Assembly: GCA_008690995.1 (NCBI GenBank)
Contig: VRMN01000003.1
Location: 1,240,001 to 1,304,000 of the forward strand
Reading direction: 5' to 3'
Length of the DNA: 64,000 nucleotides
Source: Porphyridium purpureum
Lineage: Eukaryota
A model generated the notes under the pieces. It did no database searches and was not told where the DNA came from. It worked only from the letters and a program-made list of their open reading frames with translations. Position numbers and translations under genes: made by a program. This document shows positions 6,089-19,480 of this stretch, piece after piece (positions within the stretch are counted from its first letter, which is position 1; each line of letters opens with the position of its first letter).

Positions 6089-6506
6089 TGTCACAAAAAC
6101 CGGTTTTACGGGGTTTTGTGCCCCGGAGAGACCGCGAAGGCGTAGGGAAGAACTGCTACACGTCAGGCAGTGGGCCCGCCACCACGGACGTGAGGTCGGT
6201 CTGCAGGAGGTGATCTTCAGAATCCCTTGCTGCTTATAAGGACAACAAACCCTTTTTAACTAAATGTTCTTCACTACGCTCATCTCTGGTCCTCCTTTTT
6301 TTCCCGTCATTAGCTTGCGGGAGACGGAGTCCACTTTATATACTTCGCACGAGGTGACCGCTGTACGCCGGGCTGGCGTGGGACGAGATCCTGCGTGAGA
6401 ACTATCTTGCGAGGCTCGGCATGATCCCGTGCCTGTCGACAGCCCGGAGAAGCGATGCGAGGTGCATCTCTTAGTACAGTGGCTTGGAAGAGTGAACTTT
6501 CTGACA
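6089..6506 (-). repeat. 3' LTR of copia element 1
   Basis: Same length as 17828-18245 with no difference seen by eye. TG...CA ends and a minus-strand TATATAAA near 6335-6342. Confidence 0.96.
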
Positions 6507-6612: not shown

Positions 6613-9600
6613 CTACTGAAGTAGATACACACGCGCGCTGGCAACGTCCGCTAGTTTACCGTGGCGTAACACGCGTCGCCAGAGCGGGCAGTCGCGCTCT
6701 TTGGTGAGCGCGTCGGCAACATTGTTGGCGCCCGCGACATGCACAAGTTCTGCGATCCGCCCCAGCGCCATGCCTTCCCGGAGAAGCAGAAGTCGAATCA
6801 TCTGCCTCTTTTCCTGGAGAATGGAGCTGCTTGCAACCGAGTCGTATATTTGCTTTGAGTCAGTGGCGAGGACAATGGGCGCATCTAGCCCGCACTGATG
6901 TAGTTCGTTCTGTATGCCTTCAGCGAAATCGTATGCCAACACCAAAGCCAGAAGTTCAGCACTCATGGCTGAGTGTGCCACCTGTTTGGCCTTATGTGAC
7001 GAAGAATGCAGATGGTGTACTGTGTCAGATGAGTCACCAAGGAAAATCGCGAAACCAAGTTGGGAAGTGTGGTCGTGATTAGAGGCGTAACTGGCATCTG
7101 CAAATACGCGTATCCTTAGCGTCGCTGGGTCTAGTGGGGCATATCGCACTTGTACTCGGTGATGGTTCACATACTTGGCGAGTCGCACAACCTTTCTCGC
7201 GTGTTCTTGAGTAAAAGAGCTTGCTGTCACTTGGGCCAATTTGGCTGTTGCGCACTGGATGTCTGGGCGCGTGCCTGATGACAAGTAGGCCAGCTTGCCG
7301 CGTATTGAGCGAAATTCCTCGAAGGTCTGCACATTCGGGATGCTTGATCCGAAGCATCTTTGGACATAAGCATCTTGGTCTATTGTCAAAGTCCGTCCTC
7401 GGGTGGTGACATGTGTCCCATTGAATGTAAAAGGCGGATCGAAACGACCTTTGTTATCGAGTCCAGAGGCAACTTTGGACTCTGCGGCGAACGCCGCCTC
7501 TTCGCCAAAAATCAAAGAATCGTCCACAAGCACGCCGACACCGCCGAGGAATGATTCTTCGGATCGGAGATAGAAGACGCAAGGGTCGAGACCGGCCGTA
7601 TTAAAGCCTATATCACGGAGTCGCTTGGTCAGTGTGGCATGCCAGTAGGTCCCCGACTCTCTGAGTCCATACAATGGCTTGACTATCCGGGCGTATTGAG
7701 GGAATACACTTTCCGTGATTTTGGAAAGGATGTCCCGCACGTCAGACTTTAGCCGGATGAATACTTTGCGCGATAGGTCCCACTCACTCTGCAAGTATGC
7801 TTGAGCAAAATCGCGGTATGCGATTCTATGCCCCCGGATCACTGCTATGGAAAAGATCGTGCGCATCATAAACCGCGATAGCGTTGGCGCATTTATGGTT
7901 GTGGATTCCGCGCCCGGATCCCGTGTTTTGATGCCTTGTGCGACGGAGCGGGATTTGAAGGTACCGTCTGCCTTGACGGTGTTTTCCATTCGCGAGCCTA
8001 ATAAAGTCGCGCCCGGCGGTACTTCATGCACTGCTTCAAGAGTGCCTCGATCGATTAAGCCACGAAGCTCCTTTTCCTTTGCTTCTTTCCATAAATCATC
8101 CTCGACATGGTCTGCGCTATCGAGCTTGAGAATTAGATTTTCCCGTACGTCTGTGGCTCGCAAATATGGTTTCACATTGTGGATGCTGAATGATAATTGT
8201 CTTGCCGGACCTCTCATATTCGGCACGAGCACCCACACCCGGTTTCCATCAACCTTGGCGCACACAAACGGGCCCCCATACTCATACGCTTCTTCGCGGC
8301 GCACGAGGACCGGGACTCCAGCTTCAATTCTGTCCCCCTCCCGCGGAAATTCAGGGGCTCGGCTCGCCAATGCTGCTTTCACACGATATTCTGCAATGGC
8401 GCGTTCATACGCGCCCCGCGCAATTATGGCCGCGGAAAGGCGGGCAACATTCATTTCGCGGGAATCTTCTCGGGCCGATTCTGGTCGCATGGCCAGTCGT
8501 GGTATTGTCCCAAACACCAGAAGGCTGGGAATTACACCTTCTGGGCCGGTGGTTACATTGACCGCCCGTACAGCGATGGCGAGAGAGTCCTCTGGAGTCA
8601 AACCTGGTTGGTCGCGGCGGACTCGTAGATACGTTTTCCGTAGAGGCTCATGGTGTCGTTCCACCGTTCCTTGGGACCAATGCGACTCTATGGGGACGAC
8701 GTCTACGACAGAGCACTCCCCTAGCATGAGCGCCTTAAAGTCGGCTGACGCAAAATTACTCTGGTGGTCCACTGTGATTCGATGCGGACTACCGAATACA
8801 GATATCCATCCCCGGAAAAATAAACAGAACAGGTCTTGAGCAGTTTCTCCGGACACAAACCATGCCCCGTTGAGCTTTGTGCCATTGCAGACTGCGTGTA
8901 GAACCGGGATGGATGGACTTGTTGCATCTGGATTCAAGTACATGATGTCAAGCGATACATTGTGGTTAAATGAAACCTCAATTTCCGCAGCAACTTTAAA
9001 GCTGCTTCGCCGCCCGGAATACCACTGGCAAATATCACACACGCGCAGCATGTCGTGTAGTTTCTTGTACTGTTCTGATGACAACGGGTTCCCAGAAAGG
9101 CGCAGTATCTTCTTCATCTGGGCGGCGCTTGCGTGTCCGAATCTTTTGTGAATATTTTTGAGCTCGGCGTCTGTGAACAGTAAAGCTTGTTCGGATGACT
9201 CCACATGGAATAATCCTTTCGAAAACGAATTTGCCGGGATCGATATGTGTTTGGAAGGCGCCACTTCTAAACGGATGTCAAAGTTCGGCCCTTGTAGTCG
9301 TAGAGGTGGTGGTTCACGTACCACGTTCAGTCGGTGACGCTCGAGTTCGTCGTTGCCGATGAGGATGGGCAGATTTGAGCCTTGGACCACAATGAAATGG
9401 AAAGAAAGAAAGGCGTCTGCACCAATCCCGACACGCACGGTCCCGACTCCGACCGGCTCCAGGCGCTTTCCCCAGACAAGTGTTGGGAGTTCTTTTGGTA
9501 CGGGTTCAAGTGTCTTAGGTGACCCTACGGTTTCACAATATTCGAAAAATGCGGCCACGCCTGCGACCGAAATCGGGGCGCCCGTATCCACAAACACACC

Positions 9601-9666
9601 TCTCCAGCGGCGCAGTGGCGCTGTGCGGCCGGAAATCCCACATATCGCCACCTGCACCATAAGGAG
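6613..9666 (-). CDS. pol: Copia Pol polyprotein (PR-IN-RT-RNase H), in frame with gag across one TGA
   Basis: PR: VDTGA. IN: HKRFGH..CDIC, LD..DHQSNF..ERHH and GPF. RT: KSRSVAQG, DFAQAYLQ, KPLYGL and LVDD. RH: FADAS, SAELLA, TDSK and ADALTK. Confidence 0.95.
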   Translation of the reverse strand, partial: LLMVQVAICGISGRTAPLRRWRGVFVDTGAPISVAGVAAFFEYCETVGSPKTLEPVPKELPTLVWGKRLEPVGVGTVRVGIGADAFLSFHFIVVQGSNLPILIGNDELERHRLNVVREPPPLRLQGPNFDIRLEVAPSKHISIPANSFSKGLFHVESSEQALLFTDAELKNIHKRFGHASAAQMKKILRLSGNPLSSEQYKKLHDMLRVCDICQWYSGRRSSFKVAAEIEVSFNHNVSLDIMYLNPDATSPSIPVLHAVCNGTKLNGAWFVSGETAQDLFCLFFRGWISVFGSPHRITVDHQSNFASADFKALMLGECSVVDVVPIESHWSQGTVERHHEPLRKTYLRVRRDQPGLTPEDSLAIAVRAVNVTTGPEGVIPSLLVFGTIPRLAMRPESAREDSREMNVARLSAAIIARGAYERAIAEYRVKAALASRAPEFPREGDRIEAGVPVLVRREEAYEYGGPFVCAKVDGNRVWVLVPNMRGPARQLSFSIHNVKPYLRATDVRENLILKLDSADHVEDDLWKEAKEKELRGLIDRGTLEAVHEVPPGATLLGSRMENTVKADGTFKSRSVAQGIKTRDPGAESTTINAPTLSRFMMRTIFSIAVIRGHRIAYRDFAQAYLQSEWDLSRKVFIRLKSDVRDILSKITESVFPQYARIVKPLYGLRESGTYWHATLTKRLRDIGFNTAGLDPCVFYLRSEESFLGGVGVLVDDSLIFGEEAAFAAESKVASGLDNKGRFDPPFTFNGTHVTTRGRTLTIDQDAYVQRCFGSSIPNVQTFEEFRSIRGKLAYLSSGTRPDIQCATAKLAQVTASSFTQEHARKVVRLAKYVNHHRVQVRYAPLDPATLRIRVFADASYASNHDHTSQLGFAIFLGDSSDTVHHLHSSSHKAKQVAHSAMSAELLALVLAYDFAEGIQNELHQCGLDAPIVLATDSKQIYDSVASSSILQEKRQMIRLLLLREGMALGRIAELVHVAGANNVADALTKERDCPLWRRVLRHGKLADVASARVYLLQ

Positions 9667-10961
9667 TCATGCTTGCTCATCAGGATCGTTCTGGTCATAA
9701 TCGACTAGTTTTTCTCGCAAAGAAGCCACGCTTTCCTTTTCTGCATCAACATCCGGGTCGGGTTCGCCCTCATTCTCCGGGTCGACCCACGCGACTCTTG
9801 AGGGCGGGCGCCCGTGCTTTTTCCAGCACGTACTTTCTTCATGTCCTTTGATGCCACAAAAACTGCAAAGTTTGTCAGTTTTCGTAGCAAACCTCCTACG
9901 CGGTCCTTCAGCCTTCTGGAAGCCGGTAAGAATATCGTCACCCTTTCCGAAGAGGGTGCCCTTGTTGTAATCCATTCCTTTGAGTATGTGTGAGAACTTG
10001 AAAATTTTCTCTTCGGGATTGCGGGCCTGGATCAAGGTGAAGAGCGGTGAAAATGTCGACGCCATGATTGCGCGGGAGACGTGGCGGGCAAGGCCGTCGG
10101 GTGTGTTATCGGGTACGTCGAGTTCGCGTGCCTCGGCTTCCACAGCGGCTCTCAGCCTGACCAACGACTCGTGTCTCGATGGCGACGACGTGATAAACTG
10201 GTCGAGGTTGAGCCGGCTTAGTGCCAAAATACGCTGTTCTCTCTTATCGTTTGAGTCGAATGACGACTTGAGCATGGCAAGCATCGAGTCTAAGCGCTGG
10301 TGTTGGGCGCTCGACACGAGCGCTTCGGCGCTTCCGCCCAGAATAAGCGGAAGCGCGCTTCTCGCCGTAGAGTCGTCGATGCGGAATACCGTTCGCGCTT
10401 GTTCGAATTTTCGGTACCAAACGGCAAATGGCATGCCATTTGGCTCGCCAGTGAAGACATACCGCTCGAAGTATTTTGTAAAGGCGACTTCATTTGGACT
10501 CGAGGACGCGTTTCCTCTTCTCAGACCGCGCGACTCACCAGCTCCGCCAAGCTCGACGTAGTTTTTATCTTCGTTCCCCAATGAAGTCTGGGAGAATGCT
10601 CTGAATGAGTCCTGGATATTGCGCCCGTACTCGAAGTTTGGCACCCCGCGGAGGCGACAGTATCGCTGCCACGCGAGGAGGCTCGGCGGGCCACCGTTTT
10701 CTTTCAGTAGGTCGTACGACATAAGGCTCTCAACCATCATCATTTCAATGTCATCGTTCCCCATCTCGTCGGCAGTCCTTAGCATGTCCTCGACAATTTC
10801 ATTCTTCGCTTTGACGTCGAGCCATGGGAAGCGCTCTGCTGCGCGTTCAGGCCGGGATGCTGGTACCTGTGTGTCGAGTGCCGGGCTTGATCTCTGCTTC
10901 TCTGGTACCGTCGAGGATGCGCCCGCCCGAGACGAATGAGCGCCTCGTGTCCTCGAAGATA
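9667..10961 (-). CDS. gag: Copia Gag, 3' part; the first 12 codons lie at 17679-17715 on the far side of the nested element
   Basis: CSFCGIKGHEESTC zinc knuckle. The frame is open up to the inner LTR. Removing the inner element and one CAGG copy restores ATG TCC AGT ... TCC CCT GTA TCT TCG in frame. Confidence 0.9.
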
Positions 10962-10965
10962 CAGG

Positions 10966-11243
10966 TGCTGTGTACTACACCCGCAGCCACTACAACCCCT
11001 CTCTCACCTACAGGCACCCGCCCGGATCGAACCCCGACACCAACGGCACACCAACCTCTCCTCGCACTTCGGTACCTCCTTTACTTTTCGTTTAGCTCGG
11101 GCCGCACGGCGGCGTGGATTATATACTGCCGCAAAGCCCTGGATCTAACTCAGTGGTGGGTTTGGATGGGGTTTTGGAGGGTGGACTGTACTATGGAGTA
11201 CAGGTGCTACATGTGTACAGTGCATGGGGTGTACAGCATAGCA
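10966..11243 (-). repeat. 3' LTR of gypsy element 1
   Basis: Matches 17401-17678 with no difference seen by eye. Confidence 0.96.
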
Positions 11244-11259
11244 CATCTCCCCCACCGCC
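11244..11259 (-). promoter_or_regulatory. Polypurine tract of gypsy element 1
   Basis: Minus-strand GGCGGTGGGGGAGATG immediately precedes the 3' LTR. Confidence 0.75.
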
Positions 11260-11832: not shown

Positions 11833-12024
11833 GCCGATACGCCGATACGCCGATACGCCGATACGCCGATACGGATAAACGGATAAACGGATAAACGGAT
11901 AAACGGATAAACGGATAAACGGATAAACGGATAAACGGATAAACGGATAAACGGATAAACGGATAAACGGATAAACGGATAAACGGATAAACGGATAAAC
12001 GGATAAACGGATAAACGGATAAAC
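11833..12024. repeat. Compound 8-mer tandem array (GCCGATAC)5(GGATAAAC)19
   Basis: Read directly from the sequence. It lies in the 3' non-coding region of the gypsy element. Confidence 0.97.
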
Positions 12025-12120
12025 GCCCTCCGCCTTTCTCACAGTCGAAGGTCGGGAAGGATAGAGAGGCAGCGCGAAAGGAGGCCGAGGCTCTTGCCAC
12101 ACGCCGGCGGCCCGGACCGA

Positions 12121-15100
12121 CTATAGAAAGCTCTCGCCCGACGTGGATCGCAATGCAGTGCCGCGGTGCAAGCTGCCGCGGTTGAACGCCCACACAAGGG
12201 CCGGCGGCAGGGCAGAGGAACTTTCCCACGTCCAGTCCTTCTTCCTTGCCCCCTTCCAAGCCACAAGATACTCGGCCCCGTCGCTCCGTTCGCGCCTGGC
12301 TTTCAGACCTGACACCTCAACGATGTCACCGTCGGCGTTTCCCAGGCTGGTCGAGCGCAATGTATCGTTGCTCAGTAGCGCTCGGTCCACTCTCTTCAGC
12401 CGTCGGCGATGCACGAAGAATTCTTTGCCGTCATGCGTCTTGAGCCATGCGCGATGCTCGTCAGCACGCTCAACTTCAAAAGGGCCTACCCAAGGGTCCG
12501 CCAGCTTTCGGCCCTCCCTGCCCAGCGGCGGCTTCCAAACGAACACACAGTCCCCCGGTTCAACGTCAACAATTCGACATGACGCGTTAAGCTCTCGACG
12601 TCGGGCGTCCCGGGTGGCATCATTTTCAACTACTGCGTTGTGCAAGGCCTCGAGCCTGTTGCGCAACAGAATCACAAAGGCGTCCTCCTTTCTTGCGCTG
12701 TCTTGTGGCGCTACTTCCCCTTCGGCGGCCGGGTTGAAGGGTCCCAGCCATGAATTGGCCTCTCGTCCGAACATGAGCTCGTAAGGCGTCCTCTGCGTCG
12801 TGCTGTGTCTAGTCTGGTTGAACGCGGCCACACAGGCAGGCAACCACAAATCCCAATCGTCCTCCGTGACCCACGAAGAAAGCATGTCGCAGAGTGTCCT
12901 GTTAAAGCGTTCGACCGCCCCGTTGGCTTGTGGGTTGTACGCTGTCGTAAACAGCTTTCTAACGCGCAGCATCTTGCATAACTGGCGTAGAACATCGGCT
13001 CGGAAACAGGGCCCGTTGTCGCTCAGAAGAGCTTCCGGTAGGCCAAAGATTGCAGCCCAACGATCCAAAAAAGCCTCGGCAATGGTCTCTGCCCGCTCGT
13101 CTCGCACACATATTGCTATGGTGAACCGAGTGAAAAGGTCGCTCACTACCAGGATTTTTGAATATCCAGTGCTTGTTCTCGGCGTTACCGTTAAAACGTC
13201 CGCAGCAACGACCTCGAACCGCCGGGTAACGACCCGCTTTCCCATGCGGTGGCTTGTGACAGGGGTCGGTGAGCCCTTTCGCGCGGCGCAAGTTCTACAT
13301 TGCTTTACGAACTCCAAGACGTCTTGCAGCCAGCCAGGCCACCAAAACTCCGCGTCGGATATACGTGCCGCCGTCTTGGACACTCCGAAATGCCCGCTGA
13401 AAGGTGCTGAGTGGTAGACATCTAAAATACTGCCCACTAGTCCATCAGGGACTACCTTGCGCGGTTTGTCTTTCAGCGCGGCCCACGCAAGTCCACTTTC
13501 GTCCAGATAGTACTCCGGATAGGAATATACTCGTGGGGACTTTTGCAATGCCGCGAGCTCTTTCGATAGCAGCTCGTCCTCCCTGTACGCTGCCTTGAGC
13601 CTCTCCGGAGATGGGAGCTCGTAGCCCACGGCTTGACCAATCGCGTGCGGATCATCTTCATCTGTCGGTACTGCAGAATCCTCTGCGACGGGATCTCGTC
13701 GCGCACGCGTGCGCACTGCGTTCAGTTCGAGACGTGACAGTGCGTCCGGCACTCGATTCAAGCGGCCTTTAACATGCTCGATGGTAAACGAAAAGTCCTG
13801 AATTGTCAGTGCCCAGCGCGCCAGCCTTCCTCTTGGCTCTTTCATGGACAGGAGCCAACGGAGAGGTTCATGGTCAGTGCGAATGCGTACGGTTGTGCCG
13901 AAAACATAGTGTCGTACCTTTTTGAGACACCAAACTACTGCAAGGCACTCCAGCTCGGTGACCGTATAATTTTGCTCCGCCGACGTCAAAGTCCGCGACA
14001 AAAAAGAGATTGGCGCAAGCTTCCCGTCCGGCATCTCCTGATACAACGCACCGCCCAGTCCTATCTGAGAGGCGTCGGTGTCGAGAACCTTTGGCGCGTT
14101 CGGATCCGCCAACACCAGCATCACTTTGTCCGACGTGAGCACCTCTTTGAATCCGTCGAAAGCGCAGCGCGCGTCTTCCCCAAAGCGTGCCTGCCAGCCG
14201 GCGCACTCTAGATCTGTATTGCGGTGTGCCTTCTTTGCATTGACGTCCAAGCCATCCAGCGCTCTCCGGAGCGGCGCCGCGCGATCCGAGAACCTGGGTA
14301 TGAAGTCCCTGAACCAATTCACAAGCCCTAAGAAACGCAGCAGCTCTGTTGGGCCCTTAGGGTAAGGCCACTTGAGAATGGCTGCCGTACTTTTTCCCCC
14401 CCGGCCGAATGCGGCCTTCTTCCACTTCATGTCCCAGGAAACTGAGCCTTGCCGTAGCGAATTTGCACTTTTGCAGGGAAAATGTCATGTTCTCTTCCTG
14501 GAACTTGCTTAGCACTACGTCTAGGACCTCCAAATGTTTTTCTATCGTTTTGGTCCCTGTCAACATATCGTCTAGGTACATCAGGATGTGTTTCCATCGA
14601 AGCGACCCAAGTATCGTGTTCACAAGTCTCTGGAAGGTAGCGGGCGAGTTTCGGAGGCCCTGTGCAAGGACTGTGTAGCGGAACAGTCCCTCCGCCGTTA
14701 TCATACCGGTGAAGTCCCGCGAGGACTCCGCGAGGGGAACTTGGAAGAAACCGTCAGCCAGGTCCATCACAGAGAAGACTCCACACGGGAGGAAGCGTCC
14801 CATCCAATCTAAGCATTCGCGCACGTCAGGGATTGGGTATCTATCTGGAACGGTGTGGCTGTTCAATTGGCGGAAATCCGTAGTCAGCCGCCACTTACCG
14901 TTTGGCTTTCGAATGATAACGTTCGCGCTGGCATATGGGCCCGAGCAAGGCTCGAGGATGCCCAAAGATAATAAACGCTGGACTAGCGTGCTCTCGGCCT
15001 CTCTTTCAACTTCAGACAATCTACGCAGGCGGGCCGGGGTAAGACGTGCGCCTGGATCAATAGCAATGGAGTGCTCAGTAGACCGTGTGCGACCTGGACG

Positions 15101-15919
15101 GTCCCGGAACACCCTCCAGTGCTTGAGCAACACCGCCCGAAGACCACTTTGGTGAAGCACGTCTACGTGGCTGAGGTCTACATCCATAATGCGAGCACGC
15201 GTCTCCTCTTCGTCCTCTTGCATTACGTTTGGACTCCCGAGCTTACTTGCGTCTCTTTGCTCTACCCCAACGCAATCAATTAAGTTCAGTGATTTTGCAG
15301 GCGCTCCCTCTAAGAGGCGAATCGTGGCGCCGTCTTTCATTTCGAGCTCGCCCTTGCCAAAGGAAAGCGCGTTAGCATTAGCAACCCAGAAATCCCATCC
15401 CAGGATAAGATCTTCGATAAGATCTTCAGCAACTAATGCGCGCACCTGGTACATTGACTGGCCAATTTGTAGCTGAAGCTCTGATGCTCCGACAATACCG
15501 AGGGAGCTTCCGCCTGCAGTTCGACACTCCTGCGCCACGTCCTGTATTACGGCTCCTAGAGAACTGACCCACTTTGCTCGCGCATATACACCGGCAATCC
15601 CTACAGCACCCGTGTCGGCAAGAGCATCTACGGCAGATCCCGAGACCTTGACAGGCGTGCGACCCGATCGCATGACACGTGCTTTGGCCAACACGCGCAC
15701 GTACGGGACTCTGCCAGAAGCAGATTCCACCAGATGGTTTAAGACTTCCAAGGTTGGACTCGCTCGCAGGATTCGCTTCGGCCCTAGAGCTAGATCATCA
15801 ATCACGGAACTTGTTCGAATTTCGGTGTTCTCTTCACCTACGCTGGGCTTGCGATATCCCAACGCTTCCATGGCCTCATCCACGGCCCTCCCATTCCACG
15901 CTACCACGCGTCCGCGTAG
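12121..15919 (-). CDS. pol: Gypsy Pol (PR-RT-RH-IN-chromodomain) with a single 1-nt frame break near 14390-14402
   Basis: PR: ADTGA. RT: WRLTTDFRQLN, DLADGFFQV, QGLRNSPATFQR and YLDD. RH: DTDAS, ELECLA, TDHEPL and PDALSR. IN: H..GH..CRTC, SDNG, VERFN and WVGPF. Chromodomain: EYLVAWKG..DWTWE. Confidence 0.93.
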
Positions 15920-17131
15920 TCACTCGCTCGCAGGCGCCGCCGAGGTAGCTCTGCGCACCGGTGCTGGCGCCAGGCAGTCTCCGGCATAGTGTCCTGTCCC
16001 TTGGCAGCGGCGACACCCCACTCGATCCGAGTTGGCCATTAAACGGTTCCCCCCGATTCCGGGCACGCCCAAAACGGCTGCCACCCGGTCCGCCAGGAAC
16101 TCCACTTCGATCAACTTTTGATCCTCTGTCTCCTTCGCCGGGTCAGGAGGTACACCCCCAAGATTTGGTTCGGAATCATGAAGTACATTGACCGCAGCCC
16201 CCGGTGGACGGAAAACCGGTCTCCCTTGGGCAAAGCTTCGTCCCTTCTCCAGTGTCGACCCGTAGTTTTTCTCCAACGGTAAAATCATTCCGAAGAATGT
16301 TTCTGTGGCAGCGTGGAGACGACCCATCTGTTGAATATCTCGAGGAAGTCCTCGAACAAAGTCGCTCTTCATCGACGCCTCGGATTTCCCAAGAGCAGCG
16401 CCGAGCTCGTACACGGCGCGGTGATAGTTTGCCACTGACTCGCCCTTCGTCCATTTCCTCTCGCAGTACTCTTGTTCCACAGATTCCAAAAGCTGAGGAG
16501 ACCAGAAAACCGAACGCGCCCACGCCCAACGCTGCTGAGCCGAGTACTCCGTCGCAAGCTCGCCGTTCTTCTCGGCAGTGCGATAAACCTGCTCAGCCGA
16601 ATCCGCAAAAGCTAGAACCACAAACTTTGCCGTGAGGTCGGCTGGAATGTGGCGACATGCTTCCACCCAGGTCAAATACGTGGTTTCGAACCTGAGATCA
16701 CGCGCGTGACGGATGCGACAGTCTTTCATCTCGAGAATGACCGACCTCTTCATTTCTTGCTCGAGTTTGATGAGCCGGAGCTCCTCAGTGGACATTGTCA
16801 ACAGGCTCGAACCATCAGAGACCGCCAGTGCAGTCCCGATTCTGGACGCGCGGCTGGGCTCCCCCGGTGGCTCGGCACCATGTTCGGCGGATCTTGGCCG
16901 AGAACCGCGATCCTGCGCGTCCGCAATCGTCGGTTCGTCCAGCTGCGGTCCGAGACGCTGAACGATCATCTCCATTCTCTGACGTATCTGGTCAATGCTT
17001 TCGCGCAGCTGCTCCTGGCCGGATGCGATCAGCTCTACACGTCCCTGGAGTGCCGCCACATCAGCCGTGACGCTCGCTACAGTTGGACGCCCGGCCATTT
17101 CCCCCAAGATATCCGACAGGCGTCCGGACAT
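15920..17131 (-). CDS. gag: Gypsy Gag
   Basis: 403 aa with an N-terminal coiled coil, a retrotransposon gag-like ESV..Y...FVRGL segment and the CRRCQGTGHYAGDC knuckle. Confidence 0.9.
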   Translation of the reverse strand: MSGRLSDILGEMAGRPTVASVTADVAALQGRVELIASGQEQLRESIDQIRQRMEMIVQRLGPQLDEPTIADAQDRGSRPRSAEHGAEPPGEPSRASRIGTALAVSDGSSLLTMSTEELRLIKLEQEMKRSVILEMKDCRIRHARDLRFETTYLTWVEACRHIPADLTAKFVVLAFADSAEQVYRTAEKNGELATEYSAQQRWAWARSVFWSPQLLESVEQEYCERKWTKGESVANYHRAVYELGAALGKSEASMKSDFVRGLPRDIQQMGRLHAATETFFGMILPLEKNYGSTLEKGRSFAQGRPVFRPPGAAVNVLHDSEPNLGGVPPDPAKETEDQKLIEVEFLADRVAAVLGVPGIGGNRLMANSDRVGCRRCQGTGHYAGDCLAPAPVRRATSAAPASE

Positions 17132-17400
17132 AAATCAGATAATCAGTCAGTCCCTAGAAATCAAACGCAAAAGTGTGCAATGCGTGTGCTGAAGCCACCC
17201 GGCTTCCCACACAAGTTCAAAAACCAAACAGAACTATCTTTTCAAAGCCACCCGACTTCAAACGAGACACCAGAGCCACCCGACCTGGCACCTCTCCCCC
17301 ACGTCGCCCTGGTTCCGGGCCACCCGACCACCAACCAGACCGGCCCGCGCGCTCCCACAAGAAATTACTCAAGAATGGGGCAACGCTAATTCTAGAATTA

Positions 17401-17678
17401 TGCTGTGTACTACACCCGCAGCCACTACAACCCCTCTCTCACCTACAGGCACCCGCCCGGATCGAACCCCGACACCAACGGCACACCAACCTCTCCTCGC
17501 ACTTCGGTACCTCCTTTACTTTTCGTTTAGCTCGGGCCGCACGGCGGCGTGGATTATATACTGCCGCAAAGCCCTGGATCTAACTCAGTGGTGGGTTTGG
17601 ATGGGGTTTTGGAGGGTGGACTGTACTATGGAGTACAGGTGCTACATGTGTACAGTGCATGGGGTGTACAGCATAGCA
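17401..17678 (-). repeat. 5' LTR of gypsy element 1
   Basis: Direct repeat of 10966-11243, with minus-strand TATATAA inside. Confidence 0.96.
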
Positions 17679-17827
17679 CAGGGGAAGTTGGGGCGGCTTC
17701 TCCCTCACTGGACATTCTGACCCGTCAGCAGACCGCTAATCGCTTCACTCAGGCCCGACTCCTTGCTGGATAGATCAAAGAAAGCGGACGAAGAGAGCAA
17801 ACGGGCAAGCACAAGTGAATTTCGAAA

Positions 17828-18245
17828 TGTCACAAAAACCGGTTTTACGGGGTTTTGTGCCCCGGAGAGACCGCGAAGGCGTAGGGAAGAACTGCTACAC
17901 GTCAGGCAGTGGGCCCGCCACCACGGACGTGAGGTCGGTCTGCAGGAGGTGATCTTCAGAATCCCTTGCTGCTTATAAGGACAACAAACCCTTTTTAACT
18001 AAATGTTCTTCACTACGCTCATCTCTGGTCCTCCTTTTTTTCCCGTCATTAGCTTGCGGGAGACGGAGTCCACTTTATATACTTCGCACGAGGTGACCGC
18101 TGTACGCCGGGCTGGCGTGGGACGAGATCCTGCGTGAGAACTATCTTGCGAGGCTCGGCATGATCCCGTGCCTGTCGACAGCCCGGAGAAGCGATGCGAG
18201 GTGCATCTCTTAGTACAGTGGCTTGGAAGAGTGAACTTTCTGACA
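17828..18245 (-). repeat. 5' LTR of copia element 1
   Basis: Direct repeat of 6089-6506. Confidence 0.96.
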
Positions 18246-19480
18246 GACCTGGAGTCACCTTGTCACGGCGCGCCACGAGATTTGGCGATTTTTGCCAATG
18301 TCATCATGGAGTGACAAAGATACAAAATGGTCCCTCAATCAAAATCTTAAATACGACAAAAGAATCCGGTGCGGGCGCAAAGTTGGCTTTCGCGTGCGCA
18401 CCAGTTGTGCTGTCGCGAAGGGGAGCGGCAAGCATGCCATTGGTCTGTCGAAGAAGCAAGAAAGCCGTGGTTCCATGTGGACACCGCGGCTTGACTGTTT
18501 TTTGTCGTTGATTTAGTGGCTCGAACAGAAATCCTCGCCAACATTCAATCAGTGAGGATTCGTGCGCGAACGTGCGAGCCGTGCAATCTGGATTGAAGTT
18601 TATGCGTCTCATTCATGATAACCCGCCGCAAGAATCTTCTCTGACTACCGCAAGCTTCTACGAGATTCAAACGCCTGCTCCGGCACCTGCGCAGAACTGA
18701 TTTGCGAAATCGCTCTCGGCACACCCATTGCGTCCAACTTTCTGCGAAAGTTTCATTTCGGGGCAGCGTAGTCTACTCAGTCGGTCTTATTGCATCAGCA
18801 GCGTCCTCCAGCATGTCTGCGGCCCTGTGCGCAGCATCCTCCCCGCTGTCTTTTACGCTCTATTTAACATCGCGCCCATGATGAAAACTCTGCTCCTCAT
18901 TTTTCTTCTTTTCGGGCCCAAGATCCACTGTGGTGGCCCTTGTACACTGCGTCCTTCTCTTCGAGTGTTTGCTTCGCTTCCCAATCTGCTACGCTCTTCA
19001 ATATCTCGCATTCGCAGCCTTCCCAAGTTCAAAGTCGGACGTGCGGCTCATTGCGTCCCGTCGTACAGTCGTGGCAATGGTGGGTACAAGTCCTGCGTGC
19101 CATTGTTCACGGAGTCATCTTCGCGCGAGAAAGGCAGCACTGTGTGCTTCATTGTGCCAGCTACGTCAGATGATTCAATGTACGGAGCCGTACCTTTTCT
19201 TCGCTCGCTCGCTCTGACTACGTGGAAGATGACATGTGGAACAATTGTCCCTAGCAAGAATCATCGCGTGCCTCCAGATGGAAGGGCTAAAAACTACTGC
19301 TGGTGCCAGCGCAACCAGGACTCAGGAGCGGGGTGTCGCGTTCTCAGGGGTATAAGAAGACAGCGGACTCTTCGGGCAAAGTGGAAGGCAGAGGACAAGC
19401 GCCGACGTTGACGAGCCTCAGAGATTTTCCAACATTTGAAGTATTGCCGAGGAAACGATTCTACTATCTTTTGAGAGAAA

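Follow-up and report, generated by a model that had tools for sequence, protein, structure and literature searches.

Two nested LTR retrotransposons

The window, as we call the whole 64-kb stretch of Porphyridium purpureum DNA that was analyzed, contains two nested LTR elements, both on the minus strand. A gypsy copy is inserted into the gag gene of an outer copia element. The features of the two elements are as follows, in window coordinates.

6089..6506, minus strand: copia 3' LTR, identical to the copia 5' LTR
6613..9666, minus strand: copia pol, downstream of an in-frame TGA, with protease, integrase, RT, and RNase H
10962..10965, minus strand: gypsy target-site duplication CCTG, downstream copy
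10966..11243, minus strand: gypsy 3' LTR, identical to the gypsy 5' LTR
11244..11253, minus strand: gypsy polypurine tract core GGGGGAGA plus 2-nt spacer TG, followed by the 3' LTR
11833..12025, no strand assigned: two abutting 8-bp tandem arrays (5 copies in one, 19 in the other) within the 3' untranslated region of the gypsy
12121..14484, minus strand: gypsy pol, second part (RNase H, integrase, C-terminal chromodomain)
14357..15919, minus strand: gypsy pol, first part (protease and RT)
15920..17134, minus strand: gypsy gag-like ORF, 404 aa from stop to stop, with a CCHC-like knuckle near its end
17375..17386, minus strand: leader immediately downstream of the palindrome, conserved in a sister family and able to pair with the U5 end in predicted folds
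17387..17400, minus strand: perfect 14-bp palindrome TAATTCTAGAATTA at the primer-binding-site (PBS) position, starting immediately after the 5' LTR
17401..17678, minus strand: gypsy 5' LTR, 278 bp, TGCT...AGCA, with a TATA-like box at LTR position 119
17679..17682, minus strand: gypsy target-site duplication CCTG, upstream copy
17819..17828, minus strand: copia perfect 10-bp palindrome ATTTCGAAAT, which includes the last A of the copia LTR
17828..18245, minus strand: copia 5' LTR, 418 bp, target-site duplication AGGTC

The boundary of the gypsy LTR was fixed by three features, namely the identical 278-bp LTRs, the CCTG duplication, and the reading frame of the interrupted copia gag, which stays open across the insertion if CCTG is counted once and is broken by a 280-bp boundary. 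An LTR of 280 bp, as reported by the repeat finder, was rejected because it includes two bases (TG) shared by chance at the U3 end. The last base of the 5' LTR is 17401, and the palindrome starts at the next base, 17400. Contigs from three sequencing runs contained the empty copia site and contigs from two runs contained other flanks, all breaking at 17678, which indicates that gypsy insertions differ between samples. At least two diverged sister LTR types were also observed (17401-17680; runs X7, X8, X3, and X9), one of them with ~290 extra bases in the middle of the LTR and a nearly identical polypurine tract before it.

The pol product of the gypsy element is 100% identical to P0001, a protein named as Porphyridium purpureum, and a Pfam search with the gag-like ORF (15920..17134) gave no match. 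The pol frame is broken near 14400, at a G7/A5 run (14392-14503), and the database gene models P0001 and P0002 both omit these 112 nt, a skip that is perhaps a false intron. The frame break itself may be due to an assembly error, a shared mutation, or a programmed shift.

Classification of the gypsy element

The LTRs, target-site duplication, polypurine tract, and domain order (PR-RT-RH-INT) place the inner element in Ty3/gypsy, and its best PDB match was Ty3 Gag-Pol (E=2e-80). An earlier note, made from the sequence of the window, had called it a chromovirus. The chromodomain on which this name depends is present at the C-terminus of the integrase (Pfam Chromo, E=3e-5), with a score of 24.3 bits just under the curated cut-off of 25.1. 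In the best tree, however, the RT fell into a separate clade of 12 rows (SH-aLRT 99), apart from the chromovirus-like rows of plants, green algae, and fungi. Joining this clade with the chromovirus-like rows was not rejected by the AU test (p=0.161) in a tree that holds no named Tf1 or Maggy reference, and both RT trees in this study are quick trees. The label is therefore doubtful.

A perfect palindrome at the position of the primer-binding site

The 14-mer TAATTCTAGAATTA equals its own reverse complement over all 14 nt, and no second copy with up to two mismatches was found in the window. Since the window contains 13 perfect palindromes of at least 14 bp, the palindrome by itself is unremarkable, and it is the position that counts: only 72 of the 64000 window positions (0.11%) have such a palindrome at an offset of -1 to +3. 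None of the six covering DNA runs (X2, X7, X9, X13, X8, and X3) listed alternative letters at 17387-17400, in a comparison that rests on contigs and thus on the majority form. A loose end from the X7 sister family, compared by eye, matched the window at 15 of 17 positions in 17375-17391 and at 3 of 13 in 17362-17374. It carries a T>C change at palindrome position 13, the partner base of which lies outside the visible part. The palindrome is real, and we consider it very likely to be functional.

The computed boundary and self-complementarity confirm the claim of the earlier note that a perfect 14-bp palindrome directly follows the 5' LTR. Its further statement that the site has no TGG agrees with the position of the first TGG after the LTR, at +44, compared with the 0–5 nt that we used as the criterion for tRNA priming. 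A TGG that follows a sister LTR at 17406 was not accepted as a PBS, because that LTR comes after a polypurine tract and is hence a 3' LTR.

The element also differs from those with a Tf1-type self-primer, defined by an LTR complement of at least 10 nt that starts 0–5 nt after the LTR (PMC6317226). By this definition the best complement in the gypsy element was 4 nt, and the longest exact LTR complement to any part of the first 30 nt after the 5' LTR was 5 nt. The same script retrieved a 10-nt Tf1-type complement in L041, a gypsy element with a 293-bp LTR on a circular contig, which served as a natural positive control. The LTR is thus devoid of a Tf1-type partner for the site, as the earlier note had stated. 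Several G-U-rich matches of 7–8 nt near the 3' end of the LTR were discarded as self-primers, being mostly wobble pairs far from the likely transcript start.

The outer copia element has a palindrome at its LTR edge as well. The 10-bp palindrome ATTTCGAAAT sits within a bulged stem (side region 17819-17833), and the 128 nt that follow it contain no TGG.

Palindromic leaders in related elements

Of 20 metagenome loci searched, six had an interpretable leader, and the other 14 either lacked the region or were too decayed. Four of the six leaders are palindromic (L016, L019, L026, and L028) and two have a TGG (L022 and L025). L016 belongs to the RT clade of the window element (SH-aLRT 99, 42% identity) and carries a perfect 14-mer, TAAGAAATTTCTTA, directly after ...GACA. 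Compared with the window, the three outer pairs (TAA/TTA) are retained, and each of the four inner pairs differs on both sides. The changed pairs include the centre pairs 6-9 and 7-8, which a hairpin cannot form. Two more sites are imperfect: L026, linked to L016 by 47-62% identity, has TACGAAATTTCTTA after ...CAACA with 6 of 7 pairs and open visible ORFs, and L019, also a member of the clade, has TAAGAATTTTGTTA with 5 of 7 pairs and decayed ORFs. All three of these loci (L016, L019, and L026) stem from the same record set, and in each the LTR end was inferred without a second LTR, so that they amount to one independent comparison. The covariation within the clade was reached by 11 of 500 shuffles, a figure that comes from four rows, three of them related, and is not a probability. 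The expectation raised in the earlier note, that symmetry is kept while the letters vary, holds for L016 with its perfect site and changed inner pairs.

L028, which falls outside the clade in the best tree, carries GAAAATCGATTTTC directly after an LTR end that is confirmed by its 3' LTR. Joining the window clade with L028 was not rejected (AU p=0.34), and one or several origins of the palindromic site are both compatible with the tree. Among the named rows of the tree, the RT nearest to that of L028 belongs to a powdery mildew fungus. Together with the last three LTR bases, the 14-bp palindrome of L028 grows to 20 bp (L028:116-135).

Among nine gypsy-like viral loci (L035-L042 and L044), a TGG was present in L036 and probably in L037, and L041 is Tf1-like. 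Searches of viral contigs gave no element of the window clade; they gave 14 distant retrovirus-like loci, the others being mostly pararetrovirus- or retrovirus-like. The genome contigs yielded two short fragments, both lacking the 5' end.

Calculated stability of RNA dimers and hairpins

The self-dimer of the 14-mer was calculated at -13.6 kcal/mol for the window, -13.0 for L016, and -15.5 for L028, and the corresponding isolated hairpins at 0.0, -1.1, and 0.0 kcal/mol. Forcing the window 14-mer into a tetraloop gave +1.7 kcal/mol. In all four cases considered (window gypsy, L028, copia, and L016), the dimer lay 8-16 kcal/mol below two monomers. The fold-back of the window site was predicted in a context of 50 nt and not in one of 100 nt. 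In the latter, the pair probability of the fold-back was 0.02-0.03 for the window, 0.01 for L028, 0.3-0.4 for copia, and 0.87-0.99 for L016.

A possible role of the palindrome in trans self-priming

From these sequence comparisons and calculations, we judge the chances to be about even that the palindrome replaces the tRNA primer, in that two packaged RNA copies would pair with each other and one of them would be cut and prime on the other. The two copies, presumably held as a dimer in the particles, would pair through the 14-nt palindrome. One copy would then be cut at the 3' boundary of the 14-bp duplex or close to it, presumably by the RNase H of the RT, by analogy with Tf1. From the freed 3' end, minus-strand DNA would be primed on the partner's U5, with the uncut copy providing the full template. 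The primer would be copied into plus-strand strong-stop DNA and the template into the minus strand, so that these 14 nt would also serve in second-strand transfer. The 2-nt spacer on the polypurine-tract side suggests that the priming point could lie at +3 instead of +1. In such a cycle the site would pair with its own mirror image each time, so that a single repair step could bring symmetry back, and this would explain why the symmetry is perfect up to the centre pairs. Re-symmetrising would act under fold-back too, and the symmetry of the centre therefore favours the palindrome as primer more than it favours trans over cis.

The trans reading is favoured by the +1 position, by the lack of a TGG and of an LTR complement, by the covariation in L016, by the palindromes of L028 and the copia element, and by the dimer energies. 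Counted against it are the imperfect sites of L026 and L019, the T>C change at position 13 in the X7 sister family, and the fold-back of L016, which is favoured in context (0.87-0.99). The broken pol frame also counts against it, as it bears on the autonomy of the window copy.

Among the alternatives, it is unlikely, though worth weighing first, that the palindrome is only a signal for dimer initiation or packaging and that another primer is used. Palindromic dimer sites have been shown for Ty1 (PMC6844567), the dimer is favoured in our calculations, and covariation of the centre pairs fits such a signal. Known dimer palindromes, however, stand beside a PBS and not in its place (PMC5445492, in the text available), and a pure dimer signal would leave unexplained why the palindromes of the window gypsy, copia, L028, and L016 start at -1 to +1 relative to the LTR edge.

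Somewhat less likely still is priming in cis, in which an RNA, once cleaved behind the palindrome, would fold back into a stem of 5 bp with a loop of 4 nt and prime on its own U5. Its geometry sets the 3' end at the U5 edge, and the stem is predicted in the 50-nt window context and strongly in L016. On its own this stem is unstable (+1.7 kcal/mol), and in 100 nt it almost disappears from the window (0.02-0.03) and L028 (0.01). Moreover, the loop bases covary although they would be free to vary, and the body of the cut RNA would be left without a site for second-strand transfer. The earlier note had offered both fold-back and pairing with the partner genome as mechanisms; by the energies and the centre-pair covariation, pairing with a partner RNA fits better than fold-back, which is nevertheless predicted in the 50-nt context.

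We regard it as improbable that a symmetric cellular RNA, such as a tRNA fragment, an edited tRNA, or a small RNA, anneals at the palindrome. There are copia lineages with half-tRNA priming (PMC6317226), and anticodon arms are near-symmetric, but no valid half-tRNA register was found at the palindrome: only two anticodon-loop registers are possible, and both fail the tRNA invariants (CUA with an A-A closing pair and AGA with a U-U closing pair). The 64-kb window contains no tRNA genes, and no Rfam match was obtained in 17100-18300. As the core is wholly different in the window, L016, and L028, each of these elements would need another symmetric RNA.

A binding site at the DNA level, for example a heat-shock element, is very improbable. 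The core reads TTCnnGAA in the window (17390-17397) and GAAnnTTC in L016 (424-431) and L026, both of which are two-unit heat-shock-element patterns. The third unit, however, is absent in all five sites, the pattern is missing from L028 and copia, and a protein-binding site would need neither the outer symmetry nor the exact LTR edge and would leave priming unexplained. Chance can practically be dismissed, since despite the 13 palindromes of such length in the window, a coincidence of 0.11% per position recurs in L016, L028, and the neighbouring copia.

Comparison with known priming systems

Three types of primer are distinguished for LTR elements, namely full tRNA, half tRNA, and the Tf1-type self-primer, in a survey whose available text does not mention red algae (PMC6317226). 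Trans priming through a re-symmetrised site, shared by several gypsy and copia lineages that are unrelated to each other, two of them nested here, would be a fourth mode, a proposal that we hold tentatively and would place slightly below an even chance.

The closest parallel is found in the fungal GalEa elements of the Ty1/copia group, where 44 families have a palindromic CHSeq1 and a CHSeq2 and no PBS, and no model fits (PMC5445492, as far as its text was available). For five of the 44 families no CHSeq2 is listed, and four of these five have a palindromic CHSeq1; dimer sites are mentioned in the same source (PMC5445492). The window gypsy, like GalEa, lacks a PBS and has a palindrome at the edge of its LTR. 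It differs in being a gypsy element of a red alga, with a palindrome that is 14 bp long and starts after the last LTR base, and its letters vary with compensation across relatives, whereas the two main CHSeq1 forms of GalEa may differ by RIP, to judge from their low GC content. No conserved CHSeq2 (12-41 nt downstream, with an A/A mismatch) was found for the gypsy element, and a weak candidate at 17374-17362 was dropped because the X7 sister family does not conserve it (3/13). The hairpin that the earlier note had named as a precedent from GalEa consists of CHSeq1 with a separate CHSeq2; the precedent thus extends to the shared palindrome and not to this hairpin. The outer copia element has the exact CHSeq1 geometry (10 bp including the last A of the LTR), but comes from a red alga and is without CHSeq2.

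In Tf1, the primer is released when RNase H cuts a duplex of RNA (PMC7175516), and a complement of 9-11 nt at the 5' end of the transcript is needed, the PBS not being palindromic according to the text available (PMC7175516, PMC4600332, and PMC6317226). The window gypsy is like Tf1 and sushi in being tRNA-free, in having a primer site that adjoins the LTR, and in the cleavage of an RNA duplex by RNase H that is proposed here. Unlike in Tf1, the site complements itself, and the LTR complement reaches only 4-5 nt. The dictyostelid Skipper and the SM-Tcn1 chromodomain gypsy elements have neither a tRNA site nor an LTR complement in the accounts available (PMC5006619 and PMC2864245), but they carry polypyrimidine or T-rich tracts and not palindromes. 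Palindromes drive the dimerization of Ty1 RNA (PMC6844567). PAL1 and PAL2 of Ty1 and the dimer-initiation palindromes of retroviruses likewise give the 5' leader a self-complementary part able to join two RNAs, but they accompany a tRNA PBS and lie away from the LTR edge.

The literature that we searched, which covered few subscription papers, contained no report of gypsy elements, or of elements in red algae, in which a palindrome stands in for the PBS. The Tcn2-5 elements of Cryptococcus reportedly might use a novel priming mode, a second-hand mention that may bear on novelty. Judged from sequence features, the tRNA-free variant described here would be new, with a partial precedent only in fungal copia elements.

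The site of the fungal GalEa elements has been unexplained since 2017. That compensatory changes extend to the innermost pairs of the palindrome points to two RNA copies pairing with each other and permits sharp mutational tests. As one culturable alga harbours this feature in two young families, one gypsy and one copia, the proposal is directly testable. Annotation tools that demand a PBS would mis-score such elements as defective.

Gag-pol junctions

In both elements of the window, gag and pol lie in the same frame with a TGA between them. The gypsy gag ORF stops at TGA-CTA (15917-15922), which we take to be a readthrough-type context, and the copia junction reads TGA-CTC (9664-9669). This arrangement suggests that pol may be expressed by stop-codon readthrough in both elements. 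A gag that ends in an in-frame stop is a feature that the window gypsy shares with Tj1, and an in-frame TAG was observed in L028.
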